Shown here in pieces: positions 3,360-63,632 of a stretch of DNA of 64,000 nt (its first letter is position 1; each line of letters starts with the position of its first letter). The stretch comes from Minisyncoccota bacterium (GTDB lineage: Bacteria > Patescibacteriota > Minisyncoccia > Phycocordibacterales > Phycocordibacteraceae). Made by a program: the position numbers and the translations under genes. The notes under the pieces are model-generated. The model did no database searches. It saw only the letters and a program-made list of their open reading frames with translations, and was not told the DNA's origin. Where the stretch lies: positions 46,784-110,783 of the forward strand of contig JAQVIY010000001.1 of the NCBI GenBank assembly GCA_028695415.1. The letters run 5' to 3'.

Positions 3360-5363
3360 ATGGCAAATCATGAGAATTCTCTCGTGGCCAAATTTGGGCA
3401 CGAAAAGCGATGGGTTAATTGGAAGTACGAAGAGCGAGACGGGAAAATTACCAAGGTGCCGTATGCGGTTAACGGCAAAAGGGCTTCTAGCGTTGACTCT
3501 TCCACGTGGAGCACTTATGCCGAAGTTTCCAGGATAAGTAGCAACGTAGGGATTATCTTCACCGAGGATCAACGCCTCCTTGGGATCGATATAGACCACG
3601 TTGTTGAAGATGGTGTGGTGAGCGACGATATTCAGCGCTTTATAGACGCTGCGGAAACATATACGGAAATCTCGCCCAGCGGCACAGGCCTGCACCTGTT
3701 CTTGGCGGTAACAGAGCCTCTCTCACTGACAAAGCACAAGAAAGCGCCCTACGAGCTGTATACCTCAAAACGGTTCTTCACGGTCACTAGGAACGAGTTC
3801 ACGGACTCGCCTGTGCGGACTGTTACGCCTGAAGAGGCTCTGAGGCTTCTCGCAATCATTGGTTATCCGTGGAACAAAGATGAGCCGGAAGCGCCAGCGG
3901 CGGTGCTTGGCGGCGGTGTCAGGCCACCTGCGTTGCCGCCCATGGCCGACGAGGAGCTTCTTGAGAAGATGTTTGCCTCGAAGAATGGGCACACGATAAG
4001 AGCTCTCTACCGAGGCGATATATCGAGCTACGAAAACGACGATTCTCGTGCTGACATGGCACTCTGCGCCCATCTCGCCTATTGGACGCACAATGACGGG
4101 GCTCAGATGGAACGTATATGGCTTGCCTCAGGGCTTGGACAAAGAGAAAAGACTCAGGGCCGGAAGGATTACCGTGAGCGAACGATTGCAGCCGCGATAG
4201 AGGGTAATGCCCAAGCGCGGTCTGAGAAGAACGTGCCTCAAAAGAGCCATGGGGCACAATCGGTTGGCGCGCAAGCGATAACCATCCGTATGTCGGATGT
4301 GCAGCCTAAGCCTATTGAATGGCTGTGGTTCGGACGTATAGCTCTCGGCAAGCTCACGATCATTGCCGGAGATCCGGGGCTCGGTAAGAGCCTTACTACT
4401 ATCGACATGGCGGCAAGGGTGTCGAAGGGCTGTGCATGGCCACTCGAAGGCTCTCTAGCGCCCCTGGGTAACGTGGTATTCCTCTCTGCTGAAGACGATC
4501 CGGGAGACACAATCAGGCCTCGTCTTGACGCTGCGGGTGCGGATTGTTCGCGCGTGCATGTAATTCAGGCGATCAGGGACGCGAATGAGGAAGGCAGACC
4601 GATGGAGCGAATGTTCTCGTTCAGAAAAGATATTACCGTCCTCGAAGATCTGTTGCGTACGCTCTCGGACTGCCGTCTTCTCGTGATTGACCCTGTGTCG
4701 GCATATTTGGATGGAACGAAAAGTCACGAGAACGCAGAGGTGCGACAAGTCCTGGCTCCGCTTGCTAAGCTGGCGGCGGATTTCGGTGTCGCGGTTGTCG
4801 TGGTGCAGCACCTCAACAAAAACAGCGGAGATAACGCCATGTACCGCTCAATGGGCTCTATCGGCTTTGTTGCTGCTGCCAGAGCCGCCTATATCGTTAC
4901 CAAGGACAAGGATAACCAGGAGCGTAGGCTGGTGATGCCGATCAAAAATAATCTCGCGAAAGATACGCTCGGTCTGGCCTACTCGGTCGTCGAGGCCTCA
5001 AACAGAGCTCCTATGCTCGTGTGGGAGTCTGAGGCAGTAACAATTACGGCCGACGAAGCATTGGGCCGCTCAGACTCCGATGAAGAAAAGACAAAAATTG
5101 AATGGGCGATACAGGTGCTGGAGGTTGTGCTCGCGGACGGCCCGGTTGCGGCGACAGAAGTTAATCGTGAAGCAAGACAGGCTGGCATATCCCAAAGCAC
5201 GCTGCACCGCGCGAAGGACAAGCTAGGCGTAAAACCGAAGAAAGCCAGTTTCAAGGATGGGTGGGTATGGTCGTTGCCCAACCGCGAAGGTGTTCAGATA
5301 AGCGAAGATGCCACACCTAAAGAGGTGGGTATCTTGGGGATGGATGAACACCTTGGTGAATAG
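3360..5363 (+). CDS. Fused DNA primase/polymerase (Prim-Pol N-terminus, PriCT-like middle) plus RecA-like/AAA_25 RepA-type helicase, C-terminal wHTH. Typical of phage/plasmid/satellite replicons
   Basis: DxD motif GIDIDH; P-loop GDPGLGKS; VVFLSAEDD; LVIDPVSAYL; VVVVQHLNK. Confidence 0.8.
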   Translation: MANHENSLVAKFGHEKRWVNWKYEERDGKITKVPYAVNGKRASSVDSSTWSTYAEVSRISSNVGIIFTEDQRLLGIDIDHVVEDGVVSDDIQRFIDAAETYTEISPSGTGLHLFLAVTEPLSLTKHKKAPYELYTSKRFFTVTRNEFTDSPVRTVTPEEALRLLAIIGYPWNKDEPEAPAAVLGGGVRPPALPPMADEELLEKMFASKNGHTIRALYRGDISSYENDDSRADMALCAHLAYWTHNDGAQMERIWLASGLGQREKTQGRKDYRERTIAAAIEGNAQARSEKNVPQKSHGAQSVGAQAITIRMSDVQPKPIEWLWFGRIALGKLTIIAGDPGLGKSLTTIDMAARVSKGCAWPLEGSLAPLGNVVFLSAEDDPGDTIRPRLDAAGADCSRVHVIQAIRDANEEGRPMERMFSFRKDITVLEDLLRTLSDCRLLVIDPVSAYLDGTKSHENAEVRQVLAPLAKLAADFGVAVVVVQHLNKNSGDNAMYRSMGSIGFVAAARAAYIVTKDKDNQERRLVMPIKNNLAKDTLGLAYSVVEASNRAPMLVWESEAVTITADEALGRSDSDEEKTKIEWAIQVLEVVLADGPVAATEVNREARQAGISQSTLHRAKDKLGVKPKKASFKDGWVWSLPNREGVQISEDATPKEVGILGMDEHLGE

Positions 5364-5374
5364 GAGGAATTCAC

Positions 5375-5560
5375 TTGGGCATGATCGATCTGGTCGAATT
5401 CAAGCAGTTACTGAGCCCCGAGGTGCGTGCTTTGCCTGAAAAGGAGATTGAGCGTATCCGTGAGCTTCAGTACGGCTTTGCTAACGCCATATTTGAGATG
5501 TGGCTTAGGGATCGTCACACCTCGTCCATCGAAGAAAATGAGAACAACACTAAAAGCTGA
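5375..5560 (+). CDS. Small hypothetical protein
   Basis: 61-aa ORF between primase and recombinase. Confidence 0.25.
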   Translation: MGMIDLVEFKQLLSPEVRALPEKEIERIRELQYGFANAIFEMWLRDRHTSSIEENENNTKS

Positions 5561-5703
5561 TATACTACGTAGGTACACAACTTCATACCGAGAGCTTTTT
5601 TATTGCCTGATTAAAATAATCGGGCACGGAAAGGGGCTAAGGTTGTTCAGCGTCTCTCGGGATGTTGTGTACACCAACCTTAGTCCCTTTTTGTATTCCA
5701 CTT

Positions 5704-7566
5704 ATGAAGTCTGCTGAAAAAATAAATGTCATCGGGCACTGCCGAGTGAGCTCTTCAAAACAAGCGCAAGAAGGCGAAAGCCTTAGCGTGCAAGAAGGAA
5801 TCGTTCGTGCGCACGCCGAGCGGAATAATTGGAACATGGTGAAGGTGTGGCACGAGAGCTACTCGGGCCGAAAAGAAACTCGGCCAGTATTTAACGAAAT
5901 TCTTACTTACCTCGATTCTCATCCGAGGCAGATTGAATACTATGTCTTTCGTACCATTGATCGCTTCACGCGCGGTGGTACGGGGATGTATGACCAAATG
6001 AGGAAGGAGCTCTTGAAGCGTGGTGTGGCAATGGTTGATACGAGCGGAATGATTCAGAAATCAAAAAATACTCTTGAGGATTTAGATTTTGAATATTCAT
6101 GGAGCCGTCATTCTCCGAGCGAGATCACGGAAGTTGTGGTAGCGACCACTTCAAAACAAGAAGTAACCAATATTGAGACTCGTATGATTGGGCAAGAGAT
6201 CCGATTAACGCAACAGGGGTACAAGGTTCGACACGCGCAAGACGGCTTCTTGAATACCAAGATTTACGATACCGACGGCAAGAAGCGCACGGTGATGATT
6301 GAGGACCCTATCCGCGCCAAGTATCTTCAGGCAATGTTCGAACTTCGTGCAGAAGGTCAGTTGAGTGATTCAGAGATCGTGAGTCGGGTAAATGCAATGG
6401 GATACCGCAGTCGAGCGCACAAGAAATGGGACAAGAGCCACACGAGAATCCTTGGCGCGGGCGGTGGAAAACTGCTTACGGTGAAGCATTTGCAGGAAAT
6501 CATCCAGCGCCCCATTTACGCAGGTTTAATTTGCGAGAAATGGACGAAGCATAAGCCGGTGAAGGCAAAGTTTGACGGCCTAGTGTCCGTGAACATTTTC
6601 AACAAGGCAAATAGAGGAAAGGTCTTCATAGAAGAAAAAGATGATGGGTCTTATGGAATTCTGTACGACCACTATCCCGATCGTGTCGTCGTGAAGAGAA
6701 TGCGAGACAACCCGCTATTCCCGTATAAGTCGGTGGTGATGTGCCCAGAATGCGGGAAGCCGTTCATGGGAAGTCGCTCACGAAGCAAGAGCGGCAATCC
6801 CGTGCCGTATTACCATTGTTCGCGCAAACACAAGTGGATTGGGTTCAATAAGTCTGCGTTTGAGAAGACAATCGAAGATTATGCGAACCGGCTTTATTTC
6901 TTGCCGGACGAGACAACGAGCATGAAGGCCTCGCTGAAGCACCTGTATAACGAGCGTAAGTCAGAAATCGCTCGTGAGACGGTATCTATGGAGGAAAATG
7001 TCGCTGAGCTAAAGATCCAAAAGAAAGAGGCTTTAGAGGCGTTTAAGGCAGCCACAAGTGAGGTAGTGCGCCGCGAGCTCGAAAGAGATATTGAGCAGCT
7101 TGAGACTCGCATCAACGGATCCGGCGCGGAGCACGCAAGTCTCAAGATTACGGAGTCAGATATCGATGCTTTCATGGAGTACGCAAAAGGCATAATGGAA
7201 CACCCAGCAAAAGCGCTATTGAATACAGTAAATGCGCGCCATCAGGAGTCTCTTTACTCTGTGGTATTCGACGAACTGCCATCTATTACGGAGATGGCTA
7301 ATGGAACACCTAAATTGTCTTGGATTTTCAGGCTTTCTGAGGAATCTCAGACACCTAAATCTGTGTTGGCGGGCCCACTAGGAATCGAACCTAGGCTGTC
7401 GGTTTTGGAGACCGATGTACTACCATTATACGATGGACCCTTCGCACTCACGTACGATACCAGACGCTGGGATGGTTTACCACGAGCGATTTATCCCAAA
7501 CGCAGTCGAGGGGAGTCGAGTGGGGAAAGCCGTCCCAGGCAGGGCGATGCGCGGTATGATAGAGAT
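5704..7566 (+). CDS. Large serine recombinase (resolvase N-domain, recombinase domain, zinc ribbon, coiled coil). No in-frame stop: the frame reads antisense through tRNA-Trp and into the next gene
   Basis: Catalytic motif INVIGHCRVSSSKQ; zinc ribbon CPECGKPF...YYHCSRKHKW. ORF track shows a continuous frame 5662..8466. Confidence 0.8.
7367..7440 (-). tRNA. tRNA-Trp (anticodon CCA), CCA encoded
   Basis: Minus strand GGGTCCA TC GTAT AATGGTA GTAC A TCGGT CTCCAAA ACCGA CAGC CTAGG TTCGATT CCTAG TGGGCCC G CCA. Cloverleaf folds, G73. Confidence 0.85.
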
Positions 7567-8466
7567 ATGCGTTCTCGCACTTCACTCTTCGCGCTTCTGC
7601 TTGTGGCGGGTTTGTTTATAGTACCCGCTATTGCCTCTGCACAAAGCGTACCGTTTTTCGGCCCCATCATCCCCCAGGAAGCTAATCAGGGGCTGTGCCC
7701 GGCGAGTTGGGGTATGGTCATCATCGTCATCAATCGGATTATCGCGTTCATGATCACGCTCGCTATTGTCTTCGTCGCGCCTTTAATGATTGCCTATTCC
7801 GGATTCCTCTTCGTCGTGAATCCTGTAAACGCGAGCGGGAAAGAGAAGGCGAAAGAAATTTTACGGAACACCGTTATCGGCATCGTCATTGCACTCTCGG
7901 GCTGGATGATCGTCGATGCGCTTATGGCGGTGCTCTATAACCCAGGCAATGCTGGCGGGACATGGATGACTATTATCAGGGGAAATACTGCCGATGTGTG
8001 CCTCCCGCAGAAAGGAGCGTTACCTAGCGGTACATTGAATCAAACCGGCACGGTAACGAATGTAGGAGTAAGTCCCGGCGCTGCTACGGGAAGATATACG
8101 TTTGATCCGGGCATAGCCGTACAGACGAAAGACGAATCAGGCCCGCTCTCGAGCTTGCTCTCCTGTATGGCGGGGAAATTACCGGCAGGTGTTGGTAGGA
8201 TTTCCTCGATTTCTGATAGCCTTATAACAAGCGGTCAGAAGACTTTTGCGCAGTGTGCAACGGGTGGCTGTCAGCATCAGGCAAACTCGTGTCATTATGG
8301 AGGCAAGACCTGCATTGGCAGCTCGTATGCCGTTGATTTCGGTGATGATGAAAACATCACAATACTCACGGCCGCTGCAAAGGCTTGCGGTGCTCAAACC
8401 CTCAATGAAGGGACGCATCTGCACGCGAGCGTCGGTGCCGTGAGCGGTTGCGGTTGCGGTCTCTAA
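7567..8466 (+). CDS. Secreted/membrane protein: Sec signal peptide, two TM helices, Cys/His-rich C-terminal domain
   Basis: MRSRTSLFALLLVAGLFIVPAIASA signal peptide. In frame with the upstream recombinase ORF. Confidence 0.5.
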   Translation: MRSRTSLFALLLVAGLFIVPAIASAQSVPFFGPIIPQEANQGLCPASWGMVIIVINRIIAFMITLAIVFVAPLMIAYSGFLFVVNPVNASGKEKAKEILRNTVIGIVIALSGWMIVDALMAVLYNPGNAGGTWMTIIRGNTADVCLPQKGALPSGTLNQTGTVTNVGVSPGAATGRYTFDPGIAVQTKDESGPLSSLLSCMAGKLPAGVGRISSISDSLITSGQKTFAQCATGGCQHQANSCHYGGKTCIGSSYAVDFGDDENITILTAAAKACGAQTLNEGTHLHASVGAVSGCGCGL

Positions 8467-10139: not shown

Positions 10140-10386
10140 GCCCTGCTTCGCCAAGGCTACGCAGGGCTACTTCGCTGTGTGTGCACTTCGTAGCTCCATT
10201 TCTGAATGGAGCGAAGTAGTGCCGGGAGAGGCTTGGTCACGCTTTACTAATTCGCTTCGCTCATAAGTATGCGCGACCCCGCCTCGCGACGCTCGGGGAC
10301 TCGCGTATCGCTCCGGCTTTCAAGTCTCTCACGCACGGTGCGCAGGCACCGTGCTTCCCGGCACAGCTTTCGCTTCGCTCAATCTG

Positions 10387-10467
10387 TGCCGGGAGAGAGA
10401 CTTGAACTCTCATGTCTTTCGACGAGGGGTTTTGAATCCCTTGCGTATACCATTTCGCCATCCCGGC
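10387..10467 (-). tRNA. tRNA-Leu (anticodon CAA), type II with long variable arm
   Basis: Minus strand GCCGGGA TG GCG AAATGGTATA CGC A AGGGA TTCAAAA CCCCT CGTCGAAAGACAT GAGAG TTCAAGT CTCTC TCCCGGC A. Confidence 0.75.
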
Positions 10468-51347: not shown

Positions 51348-51420
51348 GGGCCGTTAGCTCAGTTGGTAGAGCACCTCATTTGCAATGAGGGGGTCGCAGG
51401 TTCGAATCCTGTACGGTCCA
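51348..51420 (+). tRNA. tRNA-Ala (anticodon UGC), G3:U70
   Basis: GGGCCGT TA GCTC AGTTGGTA GAGC A CCTCA TTTGCAA TGAGG GGGTC GCAGG TTCGAAT CCTGT ACGGTCC A. Confidence 0.85.
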
Positions 51421-51620
51421 CAAAACAAAGGAGCCGGATGCGGAAGCATTCGGCGACTATTGTTTTGTAGGGCCGTACAGGATTCGAAGAGACGGAGCGG
51501 GCACCTGTCCAGCAGGACAGGTCGCGAGTCGCGGACACGACCAAAGTCGAGCGACGGCGAGATTTTGAGTCGCGGAAGAAAAGCGTAATCGCGGTCCTGT
51601 ACGGTCCACAAAAACAAGAA
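51421..51620 (+). repeat. tRNA-Ala trailer insert (174 nt) ending in a direct repeat of the tRNA 3' end (tcctgtacggtccacaaaa at 51595..51613), plus an internal inverted copy at 51463..51492
   Basis: Direct 19-nt repeat of 51405..51423; inverted near-copy ttgttttgtagggccgtacaggattcgaag. Confidence 0.7.
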
Positions 51621-51705
51621 GCGGAGCGCCTATGTTTTTGTAGGATGCCGAAGTGCAAGTAACTTTGGCGCCACAAAATCCGGACAACTATGGCATACTG
51701 CATAT

Positions 51706-52182
51706 ATGCCGCAGAAGAAAACCCTTATCGAGAAAATGACGACGGGAGTGGGGTCGGTGCCTTCGCTTGTCGTGCACACCCTGGTATTTATAGGGTTCTT
51801 TGTCGCCGCGTGGTCGGGAACTATCGGCTGGGACACGATGCTGCTCGCGCTCACGACTATCGTCTCGCTTGAGGCGATTTATCTCGCAATATTCATCCAG
51901 ATGTCGGTAAACAGGCACGCTGCAGAGCTTGCCGAGGTGAGTGAGGACGTCGAGGATATTCAGGAAGATGTTGACGAGATCCAAAAGGATGTCGATGAGA
52001 TTCAGAAAGACGTCGATGAGATTCAGGAAGATGTGGAAGATATCCAAGAGGATGTCGAGGAGATTAGCGATGAGGACGAGACCGATGATGAGCACGATAA
52101 AAAACAGACCGCTGCGCTTGAACAGCTCACGCAGGATATCCATCGCGTGCTCGCCGATCTTGAGCAGTTGAAGAGAAAGTAA
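51706..52182 (+). CDS. DUF1003 family membrane protein with acidic C-terminal heptad repeats
   Basis: WDTMLLALTTIVSLEAIYLAIFIQMSVNRHAA resembles the DUF1003 core; six 21-bp tandem repeats at 51943..52066. Confidence 0.6.
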   Translation: MPQKKTLIEKMTTGVGSVPSLVVHTLVFIGFFVAAWSGTIGWDTMLLALTTIVSLEAIYLAIFIQMSVNRHAAELAEVSEDVEDIQEDVDEIQKDVDEIQKDVDEIQEDVEDIQEDVEEISDEDETDDEHDKKQTAALEQLTQDIHRVLADLEQLKRK

Positions 52183-52224
52183 ATCTGGGAATCCAAGAGG
52201 ATATCTGGTATGGTTAGGTGTATC

Positions 52225-52298
52225 GCGCTCCTAGCTCAGCTGGTTAGAGCGTTCGCCTCACACGCGAAAGGTCAGGGGTTCGAGTCCCTTGGAGCGCA
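52225..52298 (+). tRNA. tRNA-Val (anticodon CAC)
   Basis: GCGCTCC TA GCTC AGCTGGTTA GAGC G TTCGC CTCACAC GCGAA AGGTC AGGGG TTCGAGT CCCTT GGAGCGC A. Confidence 0.85.
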
Positions 52299-52426
52299 CA
52301 AGAAGACTGGGAAACCGGGCTTCTTGATGCACTAGGGGACTCGAAGGCCGGAGGCTAACGAGCCGAGGCGGGGTCGCGCAGATTTCCAGCAGGAAATCAT
52401 GTGTGACCGAGTCCCTTGGAGCGCAC
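52299..52426 (+). repeat. tRNA-Val trailer insert (108 nt) ending in a perfect 19-nt direct repeat of the tRNA 3' end (cgagtcccttggagcgcac at 52408..52426 = 52281..52299)
   Basis: Contains conserved motif cgaaggccggaggctaacgagccgaggcggggtcgcgcag. Confidence 0.75.
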
Positions 52427-52443
52427 TGGGAGGTGTTCTGTGT

Positions 52444-52514
52444 CGGGCCGGAGTATGCCGGTAGTACGCACGCTTCGGGTGCGTGTAGACCGGGTTCAAT
52501 TCCCGGCGGCCCGA
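52444..52514 (+). tRNA. tRNA-Pro (anticodon CGG), C1:G72
   Basis: CGGGCCG GA GTAT GCCGGTA GTAC G CACGC TTCGGGT GCGTG TAGA CCGGG TTCAATT CCCGG CGGCCCG A. Confidence 0.75.
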
Positions 52515-53257
52515 CAAAGAACATCTCCGAATAATACAGAGAGTTTGTTTTCTGGATAAATATCGTTTGGATAAATCTCAACGAGTCTATAACCAAGCTT
52601 TTTGGCAAGCGAACGCTTTCTTTTGATATTCTTGTCGTAAACTTCTTGTACTCCAGCGAGTCCGAAAAACTCGACTAGGATATCGAAATGTATCTTGAAA
52701 TCAGCCGTCAGTCTCGTATCCCCATATGGATAATTTCGTTCGTGTAGAATACAGTTGCTCGTAAACCAATCGTCGATAATCTTTTCGGTGAACGAATCGC
52801 AATCATGTCCGTCTGTGGCTGTGAATTTTTTCGCAAACAGAACAGGATTCGTCTCAAAGCCCGCTTGTTTGATGGCGTTATTCCAGCTTCCGAAGTTTGC
52901 AGCAAAAGCATCCCACTGATTGAACTCACGCTTGAGTGGAATGCGTCCGTTTAGTACATAAAAATCTCGGATCTTCTTGAGAAGGTCTTCACTCGAGTAC
53001 TTCTTTCGATAGGGTGCAAGACGTTCTCCGACAATCTTTTTTTCTGTTGCGCTCATCCGATGGTAATTCCTTCGATTCTCAATCGCCTGTTTTTGCAGAA
53101 GAGAAATCTGAACATCTTTGGTCCACTGATGTGCGATGCTTATGCTTACGCTTAGTTGCTTTGCTATTTCGCGATGCGTCAATCCTTCAGAACGGAGGAA
53201 GCGCGCGTTCTCTTTAGTCGAGGCAGAATGGCGGACTCCGTTTCTTGCTTTCAGCAT
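52496..53257 (-). CDS. HTH-domain protein with C-terminal Vsr/DUF559-like PD-(D/E)xK endonuclease domain; homing-endonuclease-like selfish gene in an AT-rich insert between tRNA genes
   Basis: N-terminal LTHREIAKQLSVSISIAHQW (HTH). C-terminal TADFKIHFDILVEFFGLAGVQEVYDKNIKRKRSLAKKLGYRLVEI matches the DUF559 pattern D..h.IE.DG...H....D..R...L...G..V.R. Low GC. 3' end overlaps tRNA-Pro. Confidence 0.55.
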   Translation of the reverse strand: MLKARNGVRHSASTKENARFLRSEGLTHREIAKQLSVSISIAHQWTKDVQISLLQKQAIENRRNYHRMSATEKKIVGERLAPYRKKYSSEDLLKKIRDFYVLNGRIPLKREFNQWDAFAANFGSWNNAIKQAGFETNPVLFAKKFTATDGHDCDSFTEKIIDDWFTSNCILHERNYPYGDTRLTADFKIHFDILVEFFGLAGVQEVYDKNIKRKRSLAKKLGYRLVEIYPNDIYPENKLSVLFGDVLCRAAGN

Positions 53258-53283
53258 ACTTAAATTATAACGTGGTATCCTGC

Positions 53284-53357
53284 GTCATATAATCGGGCTA
53301 TCGTATAATGGTAGTACGCATGGCTGGGGGTCATGCAGCCTGGGTTCGATTCCCAGT
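53284..53357 (+). tRNA. tRNA-Pro (anticodon GGG), CCA encoded
   Basis: CGGGCTA TC GTAT AATGGTA GTAC G CATGG CTGGGGG TCATG CAGC CTGGG TTCGATT CCCAG TAGCCCG A CCA. Confidence 0.85.
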
Positions 53358-53542
53358 AGCCCGACCAAAAACGTTCGACGTTTTTTCGGGCTACAGCAAG
53401 CGTAGCTTGCGACGGGAATCGAAAGCCGGAGCGATGTTCGGCTAGCAAGCCGAACCGCGAGGCGGGGCCGAGAAAATCCGTGAGTGACGACGAACGGATT
53501 ATTCGTGGCCGAAACCGTATTCGGGGTTCCCAGTAGCCCGAC
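53358..53542 (+). repeat. tRNA-Pro trailer insert (169 nt) ending in a 16-nt direct repeat of the tRNA 3' end (ttcccagtagcccgac at 53527..53542 = 53340..53355)
   Basis: Contains conserved motif cgaaagccggagcgat...cgcgaggcggggccg. Confidence 0.75.
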
Positions 53543-53660
53543 AAATAAGCTTCGTGTTAGAATCGTCCATGCAGTAATTTGTATCGGGCCTGTACGACAG
53601 CGTACATACCCTTCGTTCGGAGCAAGAGAATATGCAGACACATTCTCTTGTCCTCACTTC

Positions 53661-53733
53661 GGGCCTGTAGCTCACTTGGTAGAGCGCGTCATTCGCATTG
53701 ACGAGGTAGGGGGTTCGATTCCCCCCAGGTCCA
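53661..53733 (+). tRNA. tRNA-Ala (anticodon CGC), G3:U70
   Basis: GGGCCTG TA GCTC ACTTGGTA GAGC G CGTCA TTCGCAT TGACG AGGTA GGGGG TTCGATT CCCCC CAGGTCC A. Confidence 0.85.
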
Positions 53734-53805
53734 CAAAATAACTAGAGTACTCACGACTATATTTTGTGAGAGTCCTGAAGGTATTCCTGAAGGGGTCCAT
53801 AAAAA

Positions 53806-57233: not shown

Positions 57234-58190
57234 ATGGACAAACCGAAAACAACACCGAAAGATTTCTTTATGTGGGCAGGGGCGGTGGTTGCGTTCTATT
57301 GGAGCGTCATCGCCTATATTTTCCTCGTGTTCAATTACATAGACTTCGTGTTCCCGAATGTTCTTACCTATTATCCGAGCGACCCGTACCAGAGCGGCAT
57401 CAGCTACCAGATGGCATCTATCATCGTCCTCCTCCCGCTGTACCTTCTCCTAATGAAACTTATTCGAAGAGATATCGCACGCGACCTGTCGCGTAGCGAG
57501 ATATGGGTGCGTCGCTGGGCGCTTATTTTGACCCTCTTCGTCGCGGGTGCGGCGATAGCGGGCGACCTTATCACCCTCCTCACCACCTTCTTGAGCGGCG
57601 AGGCGCTCACGGTAGCGTTCTTGCTCAAGACGCTCACTATCTTCCTCATCGCGGGCGGCGTGTTTCTGCACTTCATCAGCGATCTGCGGGGCTACTGGAC
57701 AACGTATCCTGCCCGCAAGCGCGCGGTCAGTATCGGCGTTGCGCTGCTTGCCGCAGTGACTATCATCTCGGGTTTCTTTATTGTCGGCACGCCGGCAGAG
57801 GCACGTCTCGCGCGCTTCGACACGCAGAAAGTGAATGATCTGCAGAATATCCAGTACCAGATTATCAATTACTACCAGGCGAAACAGAAATTGCCGGGAG
57901 CCATAACCGATCTCGAGAACACGCTCTCCTACGGCTCTCTACCTATTGACCCGCAGTCGGGTGACGCGTATGGATACCAACCGGGCGAGGGGCTCTCGTT
58001 CAAGCTTTGCGCGACATTCAACACGGCGAGCCGAATGAATTATGCGCAAACGTCGGCGACAGTGCCCGTCGGCATCAGGGAAAAGGGACAGGACAATTGG
58101 CAGCATGGCGCAGGACAGGTCTGTTTTGATCGTGTTGTTGACCCCGCCTTCTATCCGCCGCTCACTAAAGTGGCACAGCCTGTTCTATAG
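57234..58190 (+). CDS. Hypothetical membrane protein (4 TM N-terminus, extracytoplasmic C-terminal domain)
   Basis: 318-aa ORF. Confidence 0.5.
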   Translation: MDKPKTTPKDFFMWAGAVVAFYWSVIAYIFLVFNYIDFVFPNVLTYYPSDPYQSGISYQMASIIVLLPLYLLLMKLIRRDIARDLSRSEIWVRRWALILTLFVAGAAIAGDLITLLTTFLSGEALTVAFLLKTLTIFLIAGGVFLHFISDLRGYWTTYPARKRAVSIGVALLAAVTIISGFFIVGTPAEARLARFDTQKVNDLQNIQYQIINYYQAKQKLPGAITDLENTLSYGSLPIDPQSGDAYGYQPGEGLSFKLCATFNTASRMNYAQTSATVPVGIREKGQDNWQHGAGQVCFDRVVDPAFYPPLTKVAQPVL

Positions 58191-58223: not shown

Positions 58224-61064
58224 ATGTCATACGACCATCGCGAGGTAGAGAAGAAGGCTCAGGAAAAGTGGTCGGAGCTTGGCTTGTATCAGACCGACCT
58301 CTCCGACACTTCGAAAGAGCCGTTCTATCTCCTCGTTGAGTTCCCGTATCCTTCGGGCGACCTTCATATCGGCCATTGGTACGCATTTGCGGTGACCGAT
58401 ATCTACGCGCGCATGCTCCGGGCGCGGGGAAAGAATGTGCTTTTCCCGATAGGGTTCGACGCGTTCGGCTTGCCTGCCGAAAATGCCGCGATAAAGAACG
58501 GGGTCAACCCGAAAGAATGGACGTATGCGAATATCGAGCGCATGCGTAAACAACTTCGGAGCATGGGGCCGTCATTTGATTGGAGCAAAGAGGTCGTTGC
58601 GTGCGACCCGAGCTACTACCAGTGGACGCAATGGCTTTTCACAAAGCTCTTCGAACACGGGCTCGCCGAGCATCGCGAGGCGGCGGTGAAGTGGTGTCCT
58701 AAGGACCAGACCGTGCTCGCTAATGAGCAGGTCGTCGACGGCTGTTGCGAGCGATGCGGCACCGCAGTCGAAGAAAAGCGTCTCACGCAGTGGTTCCTCA
58801 GAATCACTCAGTACGCCGACCGGCTCCTCAAAGGCCTTGATGCGCTCCCGTGGCGCGAAGAGATAAAGGATGCGCAGCGCGCGTGGATAGGGAAGTCAGA
58901 GGGAGCCAAACTTCAATTTCCAATTTCCAATTTCCAATTCTCAATTGAGGTGTTCACGACGCGACCCGATACGATATATGGCGCGACCTATGTCGTGCTC
59001 GCGCCCGAACATTCATTGATACAAAATAAAGAATTAGGAATTAGAAATTATGAAGAGGTTCAAGAATATATAAAGAAAACCTCAAAAAAGACAGAGCGCG
59101 AACGAAGCGAGAATAAAGAGAAGACCGGCGTGAAGCTCGAGGGTGTGAGCGCGATAAACCCGGCCACCAAAGAAGAGATACCGGTCTACATTGCCGACTA
59201 CGTGCTTAGTTCTTATGGCACGGGTGCGGTAATGGCCGTCCCCGCCCACGACGAACGCGATATGGAGTTCGCGAAGAAATTTGGTCTGCCGGTGCGGCAG
59301 GTCATCAGTCCGGTGCTTACTCAGACGACCGGCTCAGCGACATTCCACGAAAACGAACCGGCTGAGGAAAGTTTCGGCATCATCGCGCTCGTGAAGCATT
59401 GGTCGGAAGACAAATACATCGGACTCCGGTGGCCGAACGCTGGATGGGGAACGCTCCTCACGGGTGGCATCGATGATGGCCTCTCACCTAAAGAAACGGT
59501 CTTGAAGGAGATACGCGAGGAGACGGGCTATACAGACGCGCGTATCGTGCGGCAGCTCGGGGTCATTCATAGCCGATATTTTCATGAACCGAAGAAGCTG
59601 AACCGTTTCGGACATGCGCCCGCATTTCTCGTGGAGCTTGCAAGCGACGCGTCCGTACCGGTAAGCGACGCAGAGAAAGAGAAGCACGAAGTGCAGTGGC
59701 ATACCCGGGAAGAGTTGCGGAGTTTCCTGACCGCGAATTCGCACCTTGTTGCACTCGACTTGTACGAGGAGCGTGCGTATACGGGCGACGGCATTCTCGC
59801 CAACTCCGGTGAGTTTGACGGGAAGGGAAATCGCGAAGCGATGTGGGACATCGTCGCGGCTGTGGGCGGCGAGCGGACGACCCAATATCGCTTGCGCGAT
59901 TGGCTCGTCTCGCGCCAGCGCTATTGGGGCTGCCCGATACCTATCGTGTATGACCCCGAAGGCAAACCGCACACTATTCCCGCTGAACATTTGCCGTGGC
60001 TTCTGCCGACCGATGCTGATTTCACTCCAACAGGGAAATCGCCCCTCGCCTCGTCAAACGAGCTTCGCGAGCGCGTAGTAAAGCTTTTTGGCGAGGGCTG
60101 GACGCCCGAGTACGACACCCTCGATACCTTCGTGGATTCTTCGTGGTATTTCTTGCGCTATCTCGATCCGAAGGATTCGCACAACTTCTCTGACGCATCG
60201 CTTATGAAGAAGTGGCTGCCAATCAATCGTTACTCGGGCGGCAGTGAGCACACAACCATGCACGTGCTCTACGCGCGATTCTTTATGAAGGCGCTGTACG
60301 ATCTTGCGCTCGTGCCGGTAGAGGAGCCATTCACTGAACGCTTCAATCGCGGACTCATTATGGGGCCCGACGGAGCCAAGATGAGCAAGTCGAAGGGGAA
60401 TGTCGTGAACCCCGACGAATTCGTCGAGAAGTATGGCGCTGACGCCGTGCGTCTCTATCTCGCCTTTATCGGCCCCTACAACGAGCCGGGGAGCTATCCG
60501 TGGAATCTCGAGGGGGTGGCCTCGATGCGCAAGTTCTTGGACCGCGTCGAGCGTCTCGTTGAGAAACATGCGGCGGTTCAATCATCAGAAAGCGTGGCGG
60601 GCGAACCGTTATTGCGAGCGCTCGCAAAGGCAAGTCTCAAAGCAGCGGAGGACGGCGATCGGTTCAAGTTCAACACCGGCATCGCGGCGCTTATGGCGCT
60701 TATGAACGAGCTTGAATCTACCGCTAGTATCCCGGCAACGATTCTTCAGCAGTTCGTCGTTATACTCGCGCCGTTCGCACCGCATCTCGCGGAACATCTC
60801 TGGGCTCGACTCGACGGGGAGGGTAGCGTGCACGAGCAGGCATGGCCGCTCTTTGATGACAGCGTGCTCGCATCAAATACCACAGAGATTATCGTGCAGG
60901 TCAACGGTAAGCGACGCGGTTCGATTATGCTCGCCGTATCAGGTACTGAAAAAGAGGCAGTGAATGCAGCAAAAGCCGTTCCGGCAGTAGTCGCGGCACT
61001 CTGCGGGAAAGAGCCGAAACGGGTGATATATGTCGCAGGTAAGATACTGAACTTTGTGGTATAG
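58224..61064 (+). CDS. leuS: Leucyl-tRNA synthetase carrying a ~160-aa Nudix-fold insertion between the editing (CP1) domain and the KMSKS region
   Basis: HIGH motif as HIGH(W); KMSKS; editing domain. Insert AGWGTLLTGGIDDGLSPKETVLKEIREETGY resembles a Nudix box. Confidence 0.9.
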   Translation: MSYDHREVEKKAQEKWSELGLYQTDLSDTSKEPFYLLVEFPYPSGDLHIGHWYAFAVTDIYARMLRARGKNVLFPIGFDAFGLPAENAAIKNGVNPKEWTYANIERMRKQLRSMGPSFDWSKEVVACDPSYYQWTQWLFTKLFEHGLAEHREAAVKWCPKDQTVLANEQVVDGCCERCGTAVEEKRLTQWFLRITQYADRLLKGLDALPWREEIKDAQRAWIGKSEGAKLQFPISNFQFSIEVFTTRPDTIYGATYVVLAPEHSLIQNKELGIRNYEEVQEYIKKTSKKTERERSENKEKTGVKLEGVSAINPATKEEIPVYIADYVLSSYGTGAVMAVPAHDERDMEFAKKFGLPVRQVISPVLTQTTGSATFHENEPAEESFGIIALVKHWSEDKYIGLRWPNAGWGTLLTGGIDDGLSPKETVLKEIREETGYTDARIVRQLGVIHSRYFHEPKKLNRFGHAPAFLVELASDASVPVSDAEKEKHEVQWHTREELRSFLTANSHLVALDLYEERAYTGDGILANSGEFDGKGNREAMWDIVAAVGGERTTQYRLRDWLVSRQRYWGCPIPIVYDPEGKPHTIPAEHLPWLLPTDADFTPTGKSPLASSNELRERVVKLFGEGWTPEYDTLDTFVDSSWYFLRYLDPKDSHNFSDASLMKKWLPINRYSGGSEHTTMHVLYARFFMKALYDLALVPVEEPFTERFNRGLIMGPDGAKMSKSKGNVVNPDEFVEKYGADAVRLYLAFIGPYNEPGSYPWNLEGVASMRKFLDRVERLVEKHAAVQSSESVAGEPLLRALAKASLKAAEDGDRFKFNTGIAALMALMNELESTASIPATILQQFVVILAPFAPHLAEHLWARLDGEGSVHEQAWPLFDDSVLASNTTEIIVQVNGKRRGSIMLAVSGTEKEAVNAAKAVPAVVAALCGKEPKRVIYVAGKILNFVV

Positions 61065-61122: not shown

Positions 61123-62202
61123 ATGAAAAAGGCAGTCTCGGCCGCAAAGAAAGGAAAGGCGAAATCCGCTTCAGTCGCCTCGTTTTCCTTTGACAGCGCG
61201 ACGCTCGCGAAGCGCCTCCTTGCCGCCGCTCCGGAGCGTGCCCGCGAGGTACTGACCCGCCGTTTCGGCCTCGGCACCGCCACCGAGCGCGAGACGCTCG
61301 AAGCTATCGGAGATCGCTCAAGCATCACCCGCGAGCGCGTGCGCCAGATCGAGGCCGCTGGGCTCGACGCTATCCGCGCGAGCAAGGCGTTCAAAGAGGC
61401 GACCTCGTCGTTTGAAGAGATCGCAAAATATATCCACTCGCTCGGTGCCATCGTGCCGGAGGAGACATTGCTCTCCGCACTCGGTAAGGACGAGAAGAGC
61501 CGCAACCGTTTCCGCTTCTTCCTTATGGTCAATGCTGCATTCTTCCGCGAACGCGAGACGAACGACTTCCTCGCGCGCTGGCATGTCGATCATACGACCG
61601 CGAAGCATATTCATACGGCGCTCTCGCGTCTTTACTCATCGCTTTCTGACAACGATGTCGTTACCGAAGCCGAACTGCTCGACCGATTCCTCGATGAGCT
61701 CAAAGAGGTCAACGATGCGTACAAAAACGAAGAGGTGCTGAAGCGTTGGCTCTCGCTCTCTAAGCATATCGGCAGCAACCCGCTCGCGCAGTGGGGTCGC
61801 ACGAGCGCTCCGGCAATACGCATCAAGGGCGTTCGCGATTACGCGTATCTCGCCGTGAAGCGTCACGGTGAACCGATGCACTTCTCTGATGTGGCGAAGA
61901 CTATCGGCACGCTTTTCTCTAAGAAGGCGCATGTTGCGACGACGCACAACGAGCTCATCAAGGATCCGCGCTTCGTGCTCGTCGGCCGCGGCCTCTACGC
62001 GCTTACCGAATGGGGCTACAAGCCGGGCGTTGTGCGCGACGTTATCCGCGAGACGCTCGCCGATAAGGGCCCCCTGAAGAAGGAAGAGATCATCAAGCAG
62101 GTAAAGAGCGCCCGCTTCGTCAAAGACAACACTATTCTCGTAAATTTGAACGACTCGCGCTACTTCAAGCGCCTCAAGGACGGTCGATACGCGACGGTCT
62201 AA
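61123..62202 (+). CDS. Sigma-70 region-4-like HTH domain protein (putative transcription regulator) with C-terminal winged-helix-like region
   Basis: VLTRRFGLGTATERETLEAIGDRSSITRERVRQIEAAGL resembles sigma70 r4. Confidence 0.5.
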   Translation: MKKAVSAAKKGKAKSASVASFSFDSATLAKRLLAAAPERAREVLTRRFGLGTATERETLEAIGDRSSITRERVRQIEAAGLDAIRASKAFKEATSSFEEIAKYIHSLGAIVPEETLLSALGKDEKSRNRFRFFLMVNAAFFRERETNDFLARWHVDHTTAKHIHTALSRLYSSLSDNDVVTEAELLDRFLDELKEVNDAYKNEEVLKRWLSLSKHIGSNPLAQWGRTSAPAIRIKGVRDYAYLAVKRHGEPMHFSDVAKTIGTLFSKKAHVATTHNELIKDPRFVLVGRGLYALTEWGYKPGVVRDVIRETLADKGPLKKEEIIKQVKSARFVKDNTILVNLNDSRYFKRLKDGRYATV

Positions 62203-62261: not shown

Positions 62262-63632
62262 ATGATACCGTTTTTCGAAACGATCGTCGGCTGGCGGGAT
62301 TTCCTCAAAGACAAATACGGTATCCGACTTGAGCCGCGACCTCTTTTCATCTTGGGGCTCGTGCTGCTCTTTATGTCGTACGTCTTTATGCCGAGCGTCG
62401 TATCGCTCGCGCTCTCCCTAGCGCTTTTTCTCGCTCCGGTATGGCTACCGTTTTTACTCATTGGAGGGGCGGTAAAAGTCTGGCTCATCTGGCGCCGCGG
62501 AGAGTTCATCGCTTCACAGAAATATATCCTGCTCGAGATACGGCCGCCGCGCAATCTGGTAAAGACTCCGCTCGCGATGGAAGCATTCCTCTCGACCCTC
62601 CATCTCGGTCCTGGAGAGGGAACGTGGTATGTCCGGTGGATAAAGGGCGCTGTTCGCCCGTGGTGGTCGCTCGAGATCGCGTCGCTTGAAGGTCAAGTGC
62701 ATTTTTACATCTGGACGAAAGCCGGATTCCGCCGGATGATAGAAACACAACTCTATGCGCAGTATCCGGGAATACAGGTAGTCGAAGCACTCGACTATAC
62801 GCGCCTCATCTCGGCGACAACCGAAGACTACGGCATCTGGGGATGTGATTTCAAACATACGGCGAAGAAGCAGGATGCGTTGCCGATAAAGACGTATGTC
62901 GAATACGGACTCGATAAGGCGCAGAAAGAGCCTGAGCAGGTCGACCCGCTTGCGAACCTGATCGAGTTTATGGGCTCGGTTGGGAAGGGAGAGTATCTTT
63001 GGTTGCAGATGGTCTTCCGTATGCACAAGGGTGAGAAATACGATAAGTTGAATGCGGCTGGCAAAGCATACACCTGGGTCGACGAAGCGAAAGAGCTCGT
63101 CGACAAGATACGAAAGGAGACGCGCGAACCGTATAAGGATCCGGTAAGCGGCAAAGAGATACCTGGATTCCCCAATCCGACCAAAGGTCAGATAGAGAAG
63201 ATCGCAGCGATAGAACGCAATGTCTCGAAACAGGGTTTTGATGTCGGGATGCGCTGCATCTATCTCGCGCGCGAAGGTTATTTCAATCCGGTCGTCATCT
63301 CGCAGATGAATGCGCTTTTCAACCCGTTCAATTCAGCCGGATGGAACGGTATTGGCGCGAGCGACTGGATGCGGCACTTCGACGATTACCCCTGGGAGAT
63401 CGGTGCCGAGAAACTCAAGAATACGTATCGTCGCCTTCTCGTCGAAGCGTTCCGCCGGCGACAGTTCTTCTTTGAACCGTTCGGTTTCGGTATTTCACCG
63501 AAGGATACGATGGTGATGAGCACTGAAGAGCTCGCAACTGTGTTCCATATCCCGTCGCGTGCGGTCGAGACGCCGGGGCTCGGGCGTATCCAGTCGGCGA
63601 CGGGCGAGGCACCCCCTAATCTTCCGGTCTGA
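62262..63632 (+). CDS. Hypothetical membrane-anchored protein (2 N-terminal TM, large soluble domain)
   Basis: 456-aa ORF. Confidence 0.5.
   Translation: MIPFFETIVGWRDFLKDKYGIRLEPRPLFILGLVLLFMSYVFMPSVVSLALSLALFLAPVWLPFLLIGGAVKVWLIWRRGEFIASQKYILLEIRPPRNLVKTPLAMEAFLSTLHLGPGEGTWYVRWIKGAVRPWWSLEIASLEGQVHFYIWTKAGFRRMIETQLYAQYPGIQVVEALDYTRLISATTEDYGIWGCDFKHTAKKQDALPIKTYVEYGLDKAQKEPEQVDPLANLIEFMGSVGKGEYLWLQMVFRMHKGEKYDKLNAAGKAYTWVDEAKELVDKIRKETREPYKDPVSGKEIPGFPNPTKGQIEKIAAIERNVSKQGFDVGMRCIYLAREGYFNPVVISQMNALFNPFNSAGWNGIGASDWMRHFDDYPWEIGAEKLKNTYRRLLVEAFRRRQFFFEPFGFGISPKDTMVMSTEELATVFHIPSRAVETPGLGRIQSATGEAPPNLPV

Follow-up and report, generated by a model that had tools for sequence, protein, structure and literature searches.

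Why should a leucyl-tRNA synthetase (LeuRS) carry a second hydrolase within its editing domain, and what could such a hydrolase do there? The question is raised by leuS of a Minisyncoccota bacterium (GTDB lineage Bacteria; Patescibacteriota; Minisyncoccia; Phycocordibacterales; Phycocordibacteraceae), located in a stretch of 64,000 nucleotides of contig JAQVIY010000001.1 that was analysed as a whole (assembly GCA_028695415.1, positions 46,784 to 110,783 of the forward strand; hereafter the window). An original prediction had noticed about 160 residues with a Nudix-box-like element between two segments of the encoded LeuRS. We find that these residues constitute a Nudix domain within CP1, the editing domain of an apparently ordinary bacterial-type LeuRS. 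With a probability of roughly 60% this domain is, in our view, an active nucleotide-polyphosphate pyrophosphatase that works autonomously within CP1 of a functional synthetase.

The insert comprises 161 residues between its LeuRS flanks, so the length first noted was right, and its borders, then placed at 59300-59790, move only slightly (Table 1). It is bracketed by AHDERDMEFAKKFGLPVRQVI upstream (aa 341-361, nt 59244-59306) and by GILANSGEFDG downstream (aa 523-533, nt 59790-59822). The original prediction had these flanks correct but placed the insert after the editing domain. It lies inside CP1 and not between domains, because the Pfam profile PF13603 (206 bits; profile positions 1-146 correspond to aa 219-367) is split by it, and GILANSGEFDG is still part of CP1. 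At the same position close insert-free relatives have only 10-18 residues and the LeuRS of Thermus thermophilus has about 10 unaligned residues (loop 363-374); a surface loop of 10-18 residues in the C-terminal part of CP1 would have been replaced by a complete domain of Nudix fold. The Pfam NUDIX model (PF00293) matches aa 404-500 with 45.6 bits (E 9e-12), and the insert alone with 51.1 bits, at a gathering cut-off of 21.1; this match is far beyond chance. The Nudix-like stretch that had been quoted at the outset corresponds to aa 407-436 (nt 59442-59531). A Nudix alpha/beta/alpha sandwich is predicted for the insert with high confidence, which removes the concern that no Nudix fold might be found, and the insert aligns to none of the LeuRS-specific insertion domains of solved LeuRS structures. 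Its G+C content (0.56-0.60) is that of the flanks, and a six-frame search of the window found no second copy of the module. In the AlphaFold model the N-terminal junction is a continuous strand (aa 361-366), and only few residues lead from the last helix of the insert to the YTG motif of LeuRS at the C-terminal junction.

The host protein looks intact. The product of the open reading frame (ORF) matches TIGR00396 (leuS_bact) with 914.4 bits at a cut-off of 548.4, as an equivalog of bacterial LeuRS does; it aligns to T. thermophilus LeuRS (1h3n) with an E value of 3e-208, and its full AlphaFold model superimposes on Escherichia coli LeuRS (5omw/4aq7) with a template modelling (TM) score of ~0.75. 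The HIGH and KMSKS signatures, the ZN1 cysteines and the editing motifs TTRPDT and AHDERD are all present and invariant or nearly so among 87 aligned LeuRS. With its catalytic motifs and editing-site residues kept, leuS would encode a working bacterial-type LeuRS, an ordinary member of its family. An identical protein (P0001) is known to NCBI from a metagenome-assembled genome of Candidatus Pacebacteria.

The architecture is common to hundreds of relatives in a large part of the Patescibacteria. Among the 120 closest LeuRS (64-100% identity, retrieved with the full-length query from a database of 5.8 billion proteins) 100 carry a Nudix insert of 156-165 aa at the same site, a count which, like the other distribution counts given here, is too high by some margin, as the insert was part of the queries. 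The others have a loop of 10-18 aa (16/120), a peptide of 42-55 aa (3/120) or an unrelated insert of 133 aa (1/120). An exhaustive HMMER search with the insert alone against 1.84 billion representative proteins gave 335 matches at E<=1e-3, 122 of them at E<=1e-10. The LeuRS core was also matched by 105 of the 150 best of these relatives, and the remainder were several LeuRS editing-domain fragments and otherwise proteins of ~160 aa; among long proteins the module is thus almost exclusive to LeuRS. A locus search with one protein as query, covering the insert together with its flanks, and with one genome per species, found 200 loci that encode a relative, of which 80 were kept, and the module is present in 80/80. 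Their labels include Paceibacterota, Kaiser-, Adler-, Nomura-, Sungii-, Taylor-, Vogel- and Berkelbacteria; a few others, e.g. Gammaproteobacteria and Nanoarchaeota, are probably mis-assignments in the source records. NCBI gives most insert-bearing LeuRS no more than the name 'class I tRNA ligase family protein' and calls one variant of 1130 aa 'alpha/beta fold hydrolase', whereas insert-free relatives are mostly named leucine--tRNA ligase; automatic naming seems to be disturbed by the inserts.

The module also occurs alone and in several copies. The 106 free-standing homologues of ~160 aa share their N-terminal extension and their motifs with the embedded copies, and in the three loci examined none of their genes lies beside leuS. 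At these loci a free-standing homologue follows the gene of a HAD_2 hydrolase, a HAD phosphatase, by 4 nt (L081, 7400-8486), lies in a group of small genes, within 10 kb of those for a HIT protein and a free-standing Ser_hydrolase (L083; 2765-3196, 8001-8480, 12145-12723) or stands beside polA, fpg and another Nudix gene, which is MutT-like (L084, 5062-6146). HAD, Ser_hydrolase and Nudix domains, present among these neighbours, are also found inserted in LeuRS. In four related genomes leuS is followed after 0.8-1.3 kb by a separate, co-oriented Nudix ORF of 169-190 aa (L002 6265-6834, L017 6507-7013, L023 6663-7202, L025 6192-6698); these ORFs belong to a different subfamily (Pfam ~68 bits in L002 and L023, 41-48 bits to the module profile). 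Some LeuRS contain three modules (P0121, P0122) or two (P0040, P0123, P0137, P0158, P0161, P0169, P0192, L047, L048), in tandem or at two CP1 loops, and a box of the Glu/Arg type is often paired with one of the Gln/Ala type, which may point to two functional subtypes or to a pseudo-heterodimer. Recent tandem duplication within one LeuRS was considered and rejected: identity between copies of one protein is only 20-46%, less than that to copies from other proteins, so insertion of the module was recurrent or ancient. The fragment P0129, with 74% identity, is the one exception to the low identity within one protein.

Is the inserted domain still an enzyme? The box of the window copy reads G414-x5-L420-x7-K428-E429-I-R-E432-E433-T-G435-Y436. 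Compared with the core RE-U-x-EE-x-G-U, all three glutamates of REx2EE are present and the arginine is exchanged for lysine; the first box glutamate (G-x5-E) is replaced by L420. The missing glutamate had been recognised correctly from the start, but it is no sign of decay: Glu occupies position 420 in only 62% of the embedded copies and Gln in 101/128 free-standing ones, while the metal-binding glutamates are nearly invariant (97-100%). At position 428, 63% of the embedded copies have Arg and 18% Lys, and 74/128 free-standing ones have Ala. Leucine 420 and lysine 428 thus fall at variable positions and represent normal variation of the family. In 199 embedded copies E429 and E433 are conserved to 100%, E432 to 97%, G414 to 98% and G435 to 95%, and outside the box K457 to 99%, N460 to 93%, R461 to 82%, E484 to 93%, W492 to 98% and W403 to 90%; the same residues are equally conserved in the site-1 copies, in fragments, in free-standing proteins and in each copy of the multi-copy proteins. 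Across 353 module copies the aromatic pair behind the box is found in ~97%, K457 in 99%, N460 in 94% and R461 in 86%. K457, N460 and R461 form part of an X-loop motif, [HA]x[PH]KxxNR, that is peculiar to this Nudix family; in Nudix hydrolases the X-loop, which lies ~17 residues behind the box, is known to determine specificity (PMC5389931). To judge from its position, E484 is probably a fourth metal ligand or the catalytic base, equivalent to E98 of MutT and E120 of RppH. Over 99 homologues the insert averages 39% identity to the window copy, the editing domain 71% and the remainder of LeuRS 77%. Because the metal-binding glutamates and the K..NR, E and W set are conserved to 93-100% while the domain around them has drifted to 39%, we infer that the insert is probably an active, Mg2+-dependent pyrophosphohydrolase.

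The insert belongs to the Nudix superfamily but to none of its characterised subfamilies. No curated Nudix subfamily matched the window copy above cut-off, the best being RppH with 25.1 bits against a required 118 (PRK00714 models). For 42 diverse module copies the nearest curated models were RppH (30/42) and the YtkD model 'RNA deprotection pyrophosphohydrolase' (18/42), all sub-threshold. Models of the MutT 8-oxo-dGTPase (TIGR00586, NF008044) gave no match to the window copy at E<=1 and weak matches in only 3-8 of the 42 copies. Subfamily assignment was also tried with PDB profiles and curated hidden Markov models (HMMs) and yielded sub-threshold, generic matches only. In a Foldseek search with the model of the insert, the diadenosine tetraphosphate (Ap4A) hydrolase of Aquifex aeolicus came second and Ndx1 third; RppH, AvrM14, DIPP1 and Dcp2 are among the structural and profile matches. 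The marker of diadenosine polyphosphate (ApnA) hydrolases is an X-loop tyrosine that follows the box at a distance of ~16-18 residues, as Dunn (1999) is cited in PMC5389931. The window copy has the aromatic pair Y452-F453 at +16/+17, a candidate for such a marker. The ADP-ribose subgroup is marked by a proline ~16 residues after the box and the NADH subgroup by the motif SQPWPFPQS (PMC5389931); neither marker is present in the window copy, which has tyrosine at +16 and no SQPWPFPQS-like sequence. Among the nearest relatives, those that have been characterised act on (di)nucleoside polyphosphates (Ap4A-Ap6A) and on RNA with a 5' polyphosphate or cap, and on this ground we favour hydrolysis of a nucleotide polyphosphate as the most likely chemistry. 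With low-to-moderate confidence, by analogy to these relatives, the substrate would be a (di)nucleoside polyphosphate or a nucleoside triphosphate (NTP). An ApnA or a non-canonical NTP could then be hydrolysed to a nucleoside monophosphate and the remainder of the molecule. Of the two functions first suggested for the domain, a role in Ap4A or nucleotide metabolism agrees with its nearest structural and sequence neighbours; proofreading found no support, given the free-standing homologues and the hydrolases outside CP1.

Such hydrolases occur in at least four further loops in relatives of the window LeuRS (in window numbering), some of them outside CP1. A Ser_hydrolase domain (PF06821, alpha/beta serine hydrolase) follows aa ~235 or ~582 in P0011, P0023, P0059, P0170, P0214, P0226, P0258, L011, L012, L033, L041, L044 and L076; a HAD phosphatase follows aa ~235 or ~622 in P0257, L043 and L066; and Ham1/ITPase (E 3e-58) is inserted after aa ~782-793, before the anticodon-binding domain, in P0197. 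In about 20 of the 80 species-representative loci the LeuRS ORF exceeds 1100 aa. Inserts devoid of a Pfam match occupy the same permissive loops: 133 aa at the Nudix site (P0116), 102 aa after aa ~235 (L004) and ~98 aa after aa ~582 (P0166, P0197). The inserts of 42-55 aa in P0087, P0097 and P0109 likewise match no Pfam family. Ham1 has a known house-cleaning role, and on our reading the HAD and Nudix inserts may be house-cleaning enzymes as well.

We think it most likely that the Nudix module is a nucleotide house-cleaning enzyme that LeuRS would merely carry, outside the mechanism of aminoacylation and editing. Three considerations favour such autonomy. The free-standing homologues share the motifs of the embedded copies and lie in unrelated gene neighbourhoods; hydrolases of unrelated chemistry occupy other LeuRS loops, some outside CP1; and the Nudix reaction, cleavage of a P-O-P bond, differs from the ester hydrolysis of post-transfer editing. 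Several observations weigh against an active, autonomous polyphosphatase. Every match to a curated subfamily lies far below its cut-off, which leaves the substrate assignment weak, and the closest solved structure, 2azw of Enterococcus faecalis, has no assigned function. Leucine 420 together with lysine 428 could lower or change the activity of the window copy. Moreover, autonomy explains neither why the module resides almost exclusively in LeuRS (105/150 closest relatives) nor why it was inserted repeatedly (up to three copies of 20-46% mutual identity). Finally, the short junctions of the model suggest a rigid placement that possibly serves a coupled function.

Coupling of the Nudix domain to LeuRS, which we consider possible if unlikely, would take one of three forms: destruction of Ap4A or other dinucleoside tetraphosphates (Np4N) that the LeuRS active site forms from Leu-AMP and ATP, hydrolysis of mis-activated aminoacyl-adenylate (an additional step of pre-transfer editing), or nucleotide sensing with allosteric control of editing or aminoacylation. 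The near-exclusive location in LeuRS, the repeated insertion at two CP1 loops and the short, rigid junctions would all fit such an arrangement, as would the fact that ApnA hydrolases are the nearest structural neighbours of the insert. The Ap4A of cells comes mainly from aminoacyl-tRNA synthetases and is broken down by Nudix enzymes (PMC10148737). On the other hand, free-standing homologues with the same motifs must work without LeuRS and are not encoded beside leuS, and the domains in other LeuRS loops (HAD, Ham1, serine hydrolase), also outside CP1, have unrelated chemistry. Hydrolysis of a mis-activated adenylate meets a further objection, since to our knowledge no Nudix enzyme cleaves acyl-adenylates. 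A wider version of this idea, which strikes us as decidedly doubtful, regards the LeuRS of Paceibacteria-type Patescibacteria as a platform for house-cleaning hydrolases (one to three Nudix modules, Ham1/ITPase, HAD, serine hydrolase). At least the Nudix modules would act in cis there, either by removing Ap4A/Np4N or mis-activated adenylates or by gating aminoacylation or editing according to the nucleotide pool.

Could the substrate be RNA? An RppH-like pyrophosphohydrolase or decapping enzyme might act on 5'-triphosphate ends or on Np4N- or NAD-capped RNA, possibly on tRNA-Leu or its precursors brought along by LeuRS, which binds RNA. The preference of the module copies for the RppH and YtkD models points in this direction, as do RppH, AvrM14, DIPP1 and Dcp2 among the structural and profile matches. 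These curated matches all stay far below the family cut-offs, however, mature tRNA carries a 5' monophosphate, and the free-standing homologues lack any RNA-binding partner, so that we judge an RNA end as substrate to be improbable.

A pseudo-enzyme that serves as a structural, dimerisation or tRNA-binding module appears highly improbable. The box of the window copy departs from the canonical form at two positions (E to L and R to K), several copies per protein could mean scaffolding, and non-enzymatic Nudix domains do exist (PMC5389931). Yet metal-binding glutamates and X-loop residues conserved to 93-100% in a domain of ~39% identity are the signature of an active site. That the insert is an artefact, be it a chimeric assembly, a frameshift or a motif matched by chance, is practically refuted: nothing was found in its favour, and a single uninterrupted ORF, uniform G+C, the same architecture in about 100 independent assemblies of close homologues and in the 80/80 kept loci, and significant HMM domain and fold matches all speak against it.

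Table 1. Features of leuS and of the inserted Nudix domain, in coordinates of the window (aa, residues of the LeuRS; pLDDT, predicted local distance difference test)
Feature	Position (nt)	Strand	Basis
leuS, bacterial-type LeuRS with insert, 946 aa	58224..61064	+	one uninterrupted ORF; TIGR00396, 1h3n, AlphaFold model
HIGH signature motif, aa 48-51	58365..58376	+	sequence reading; H48, G50, H51 invariant in LeuRS alignment
CP1 editing domain, segment N-terminal to the insert, aa 219-361	58878..59306	+	PF13603, pLDDT >90
Thr-rich editing motif TTRPDT, aa 245-250	58956..58973	+	T245, T246, R247, T250 invariant, 87 LeuRS
AHDERD editing-site motif with conserved aspartates, aa 341-346	59244..59261	+	H342, D343, R345, D346 invariant
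Inserted Nudix domain, aa 362-522, own N-terminal strand extension included	59307..59789	+	161 residues between LeuRS flanks
Nudix box G414-Y436, GGIDDG-L-SPKETVL-K-E-I-R-EE-T-G-Y	59463..59531	+	conservation in 199 LeuRS-embedded copies
Aromatic pair Y452-F453 (+16/+17 after box) and X-loop H-E-P-K457-K-L-N460-R461	59577..59606	+	conservation, module copies
E484, probable fourth metal-binding or catalytic glutamate	59673..59675	+	93-98% conserved, embedded and free-standing
CP1 editing domain, segment C-terminal to the insert, aa 523-555 (GILANSGEFDG and next helix)	59790..59888	+	aligns with T. thermophilus LeuRS 381 onward; pLDDT >90
KMSKS signature motif, aa 719-723	60378..60392	+	sequence reading

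In the window, leuS begins 33 nt after a gene for a DUF5671 membrane protein (57234-58187) and is followed by a gene with sigma-70 region 4 and HARE-HTH domains (61123-62199) and by an ORF of 456 aa that has no Pfam match (62262-63629). A gene for tRNA-Leu(CAA) lies far from leuS at 10386-10467 on the minus strand, and five further tRNA genes (Ala-UGC, Val-CAC, Pro-CGG, Pro-GGG, Ala-CGC) are clustered at 51348-53734. The region 3360-8466 may be an integrated mobile element; it holds an AAA_25/NrS-1-primase-like ORF (3360-5360) followed by an ORF of 934 aa with serine-recombinase domains in its first ~390 aa. A predicted tRNA-Trp (7367-7440, minus strand) overlaps the distal part of this recombinase ORF on the opposite strand, and the ORF may therefore be over-extended.

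In the full text of 8 million papers no account of a Nudix domain within LeuRS or another aminoacyl-tRNA synthetase was found, the one apparent match being a mere entry in a reference list. The 2017 survey of the Nudix clan mentions neither tRNA synthetases nor tRNA ligases (PMC5389931), and double-Nudix proteins are already known, to judge from its reference list. The Nudix-in-LeuRS architecture is visible in precomputed Pfam annotations; it is present in databases and apparently undescribed in the literature. The editing domains of aminoacyl-tRNA synthetases are among the best-studied quality-control modules, and we know of none that hosts a second, unrelated hydrolase. What we describe is probably an active Nudix pyrophosphatase built into CP1 of a presumably essential LeuRS. 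If it is autonomous, it would represent an unusual route of genome streamlining, in which house-cleaning enzymes are kept inside an indispensable protein, and it would map LeuRS loops tolerant of inserts of ~100-210 aa, which is useful in protein engineering. If it is coupled, aminoacylation would be tied directly to the control of Ap4A or of the nucleotide pool, and action in cis would mean a new layer of control, over translational quality or alarmones, that is physically part of the synthetase.

With the LeuRS of T. thermophilus (1H3N, 2BYT) and E. coli (4AQ7, 4ARC) the window protein has in common the HIGH/KMSKS core, the ZN1 cysteines, a CP1 domain with Thr-rich and AHDxRD motifs, the anticodon-binding domain and the C-terminal domain. 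It differs from the former by the 161-aa Nudix domain in place of CP1 loop 363-374, and from both by the absence of the leucine-specific domain before KMSKS, where residues ~593-635 of the 1h3n chain are skipped in the alignment; its relatives likewise lack this domain. The Nudix module itself shares the P-x-F...VER extension and the K..NR, E and W motifs with free-standing Nudix proteins of Patescibacteria (P0271-P0370; 'MutT' or 'YjhB' at JGI, 'NUDIX hydrolase' at NCBI). These are at most 43% identical to the window copy and at most 62% to other embedded copies, and at the two variable box positions they mostly have Gln/Ala, whereas Glu/Arg prevails in embedded copies and Leu/Lys is found in the window copy. 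Embedded and free-standing members together define a Nudix clade with a distinctive X-loop. Identity of the module to the (di)nucleoside-polyphosphate/RppH group (Rv2985 of Mycobacterium tuberculosis, T. thermophilus Ndx1, the A. aeolicus Ap4A hydrolase, E. coli RppH) and to 2AZW is only 16-24%, and in contrast to these the window module has its own X-loop [HA]x[PH]KxxNR and conserved Trp residues and is embedded rather than free-standing. Bacterial synthetases with an extra enzyme domain are already known, e.g. the isoleucine--tRNA ligases of NCBIfam NF040702 ('isoleucine--tRNA ligase, N-acetyltransferase domain-containing'), in which a bacterial class I synthetase is likewise fused to an unrelated small enzyme domain. 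In contrast to the GNAT domain of those enzymes, the Nudix domain is not appended but sits in an internal loop of the editing domain, and the relatives of the window LeuRS carry up to three copies of it as well as HAD, Ham1 and serine-hydrolase inserts.

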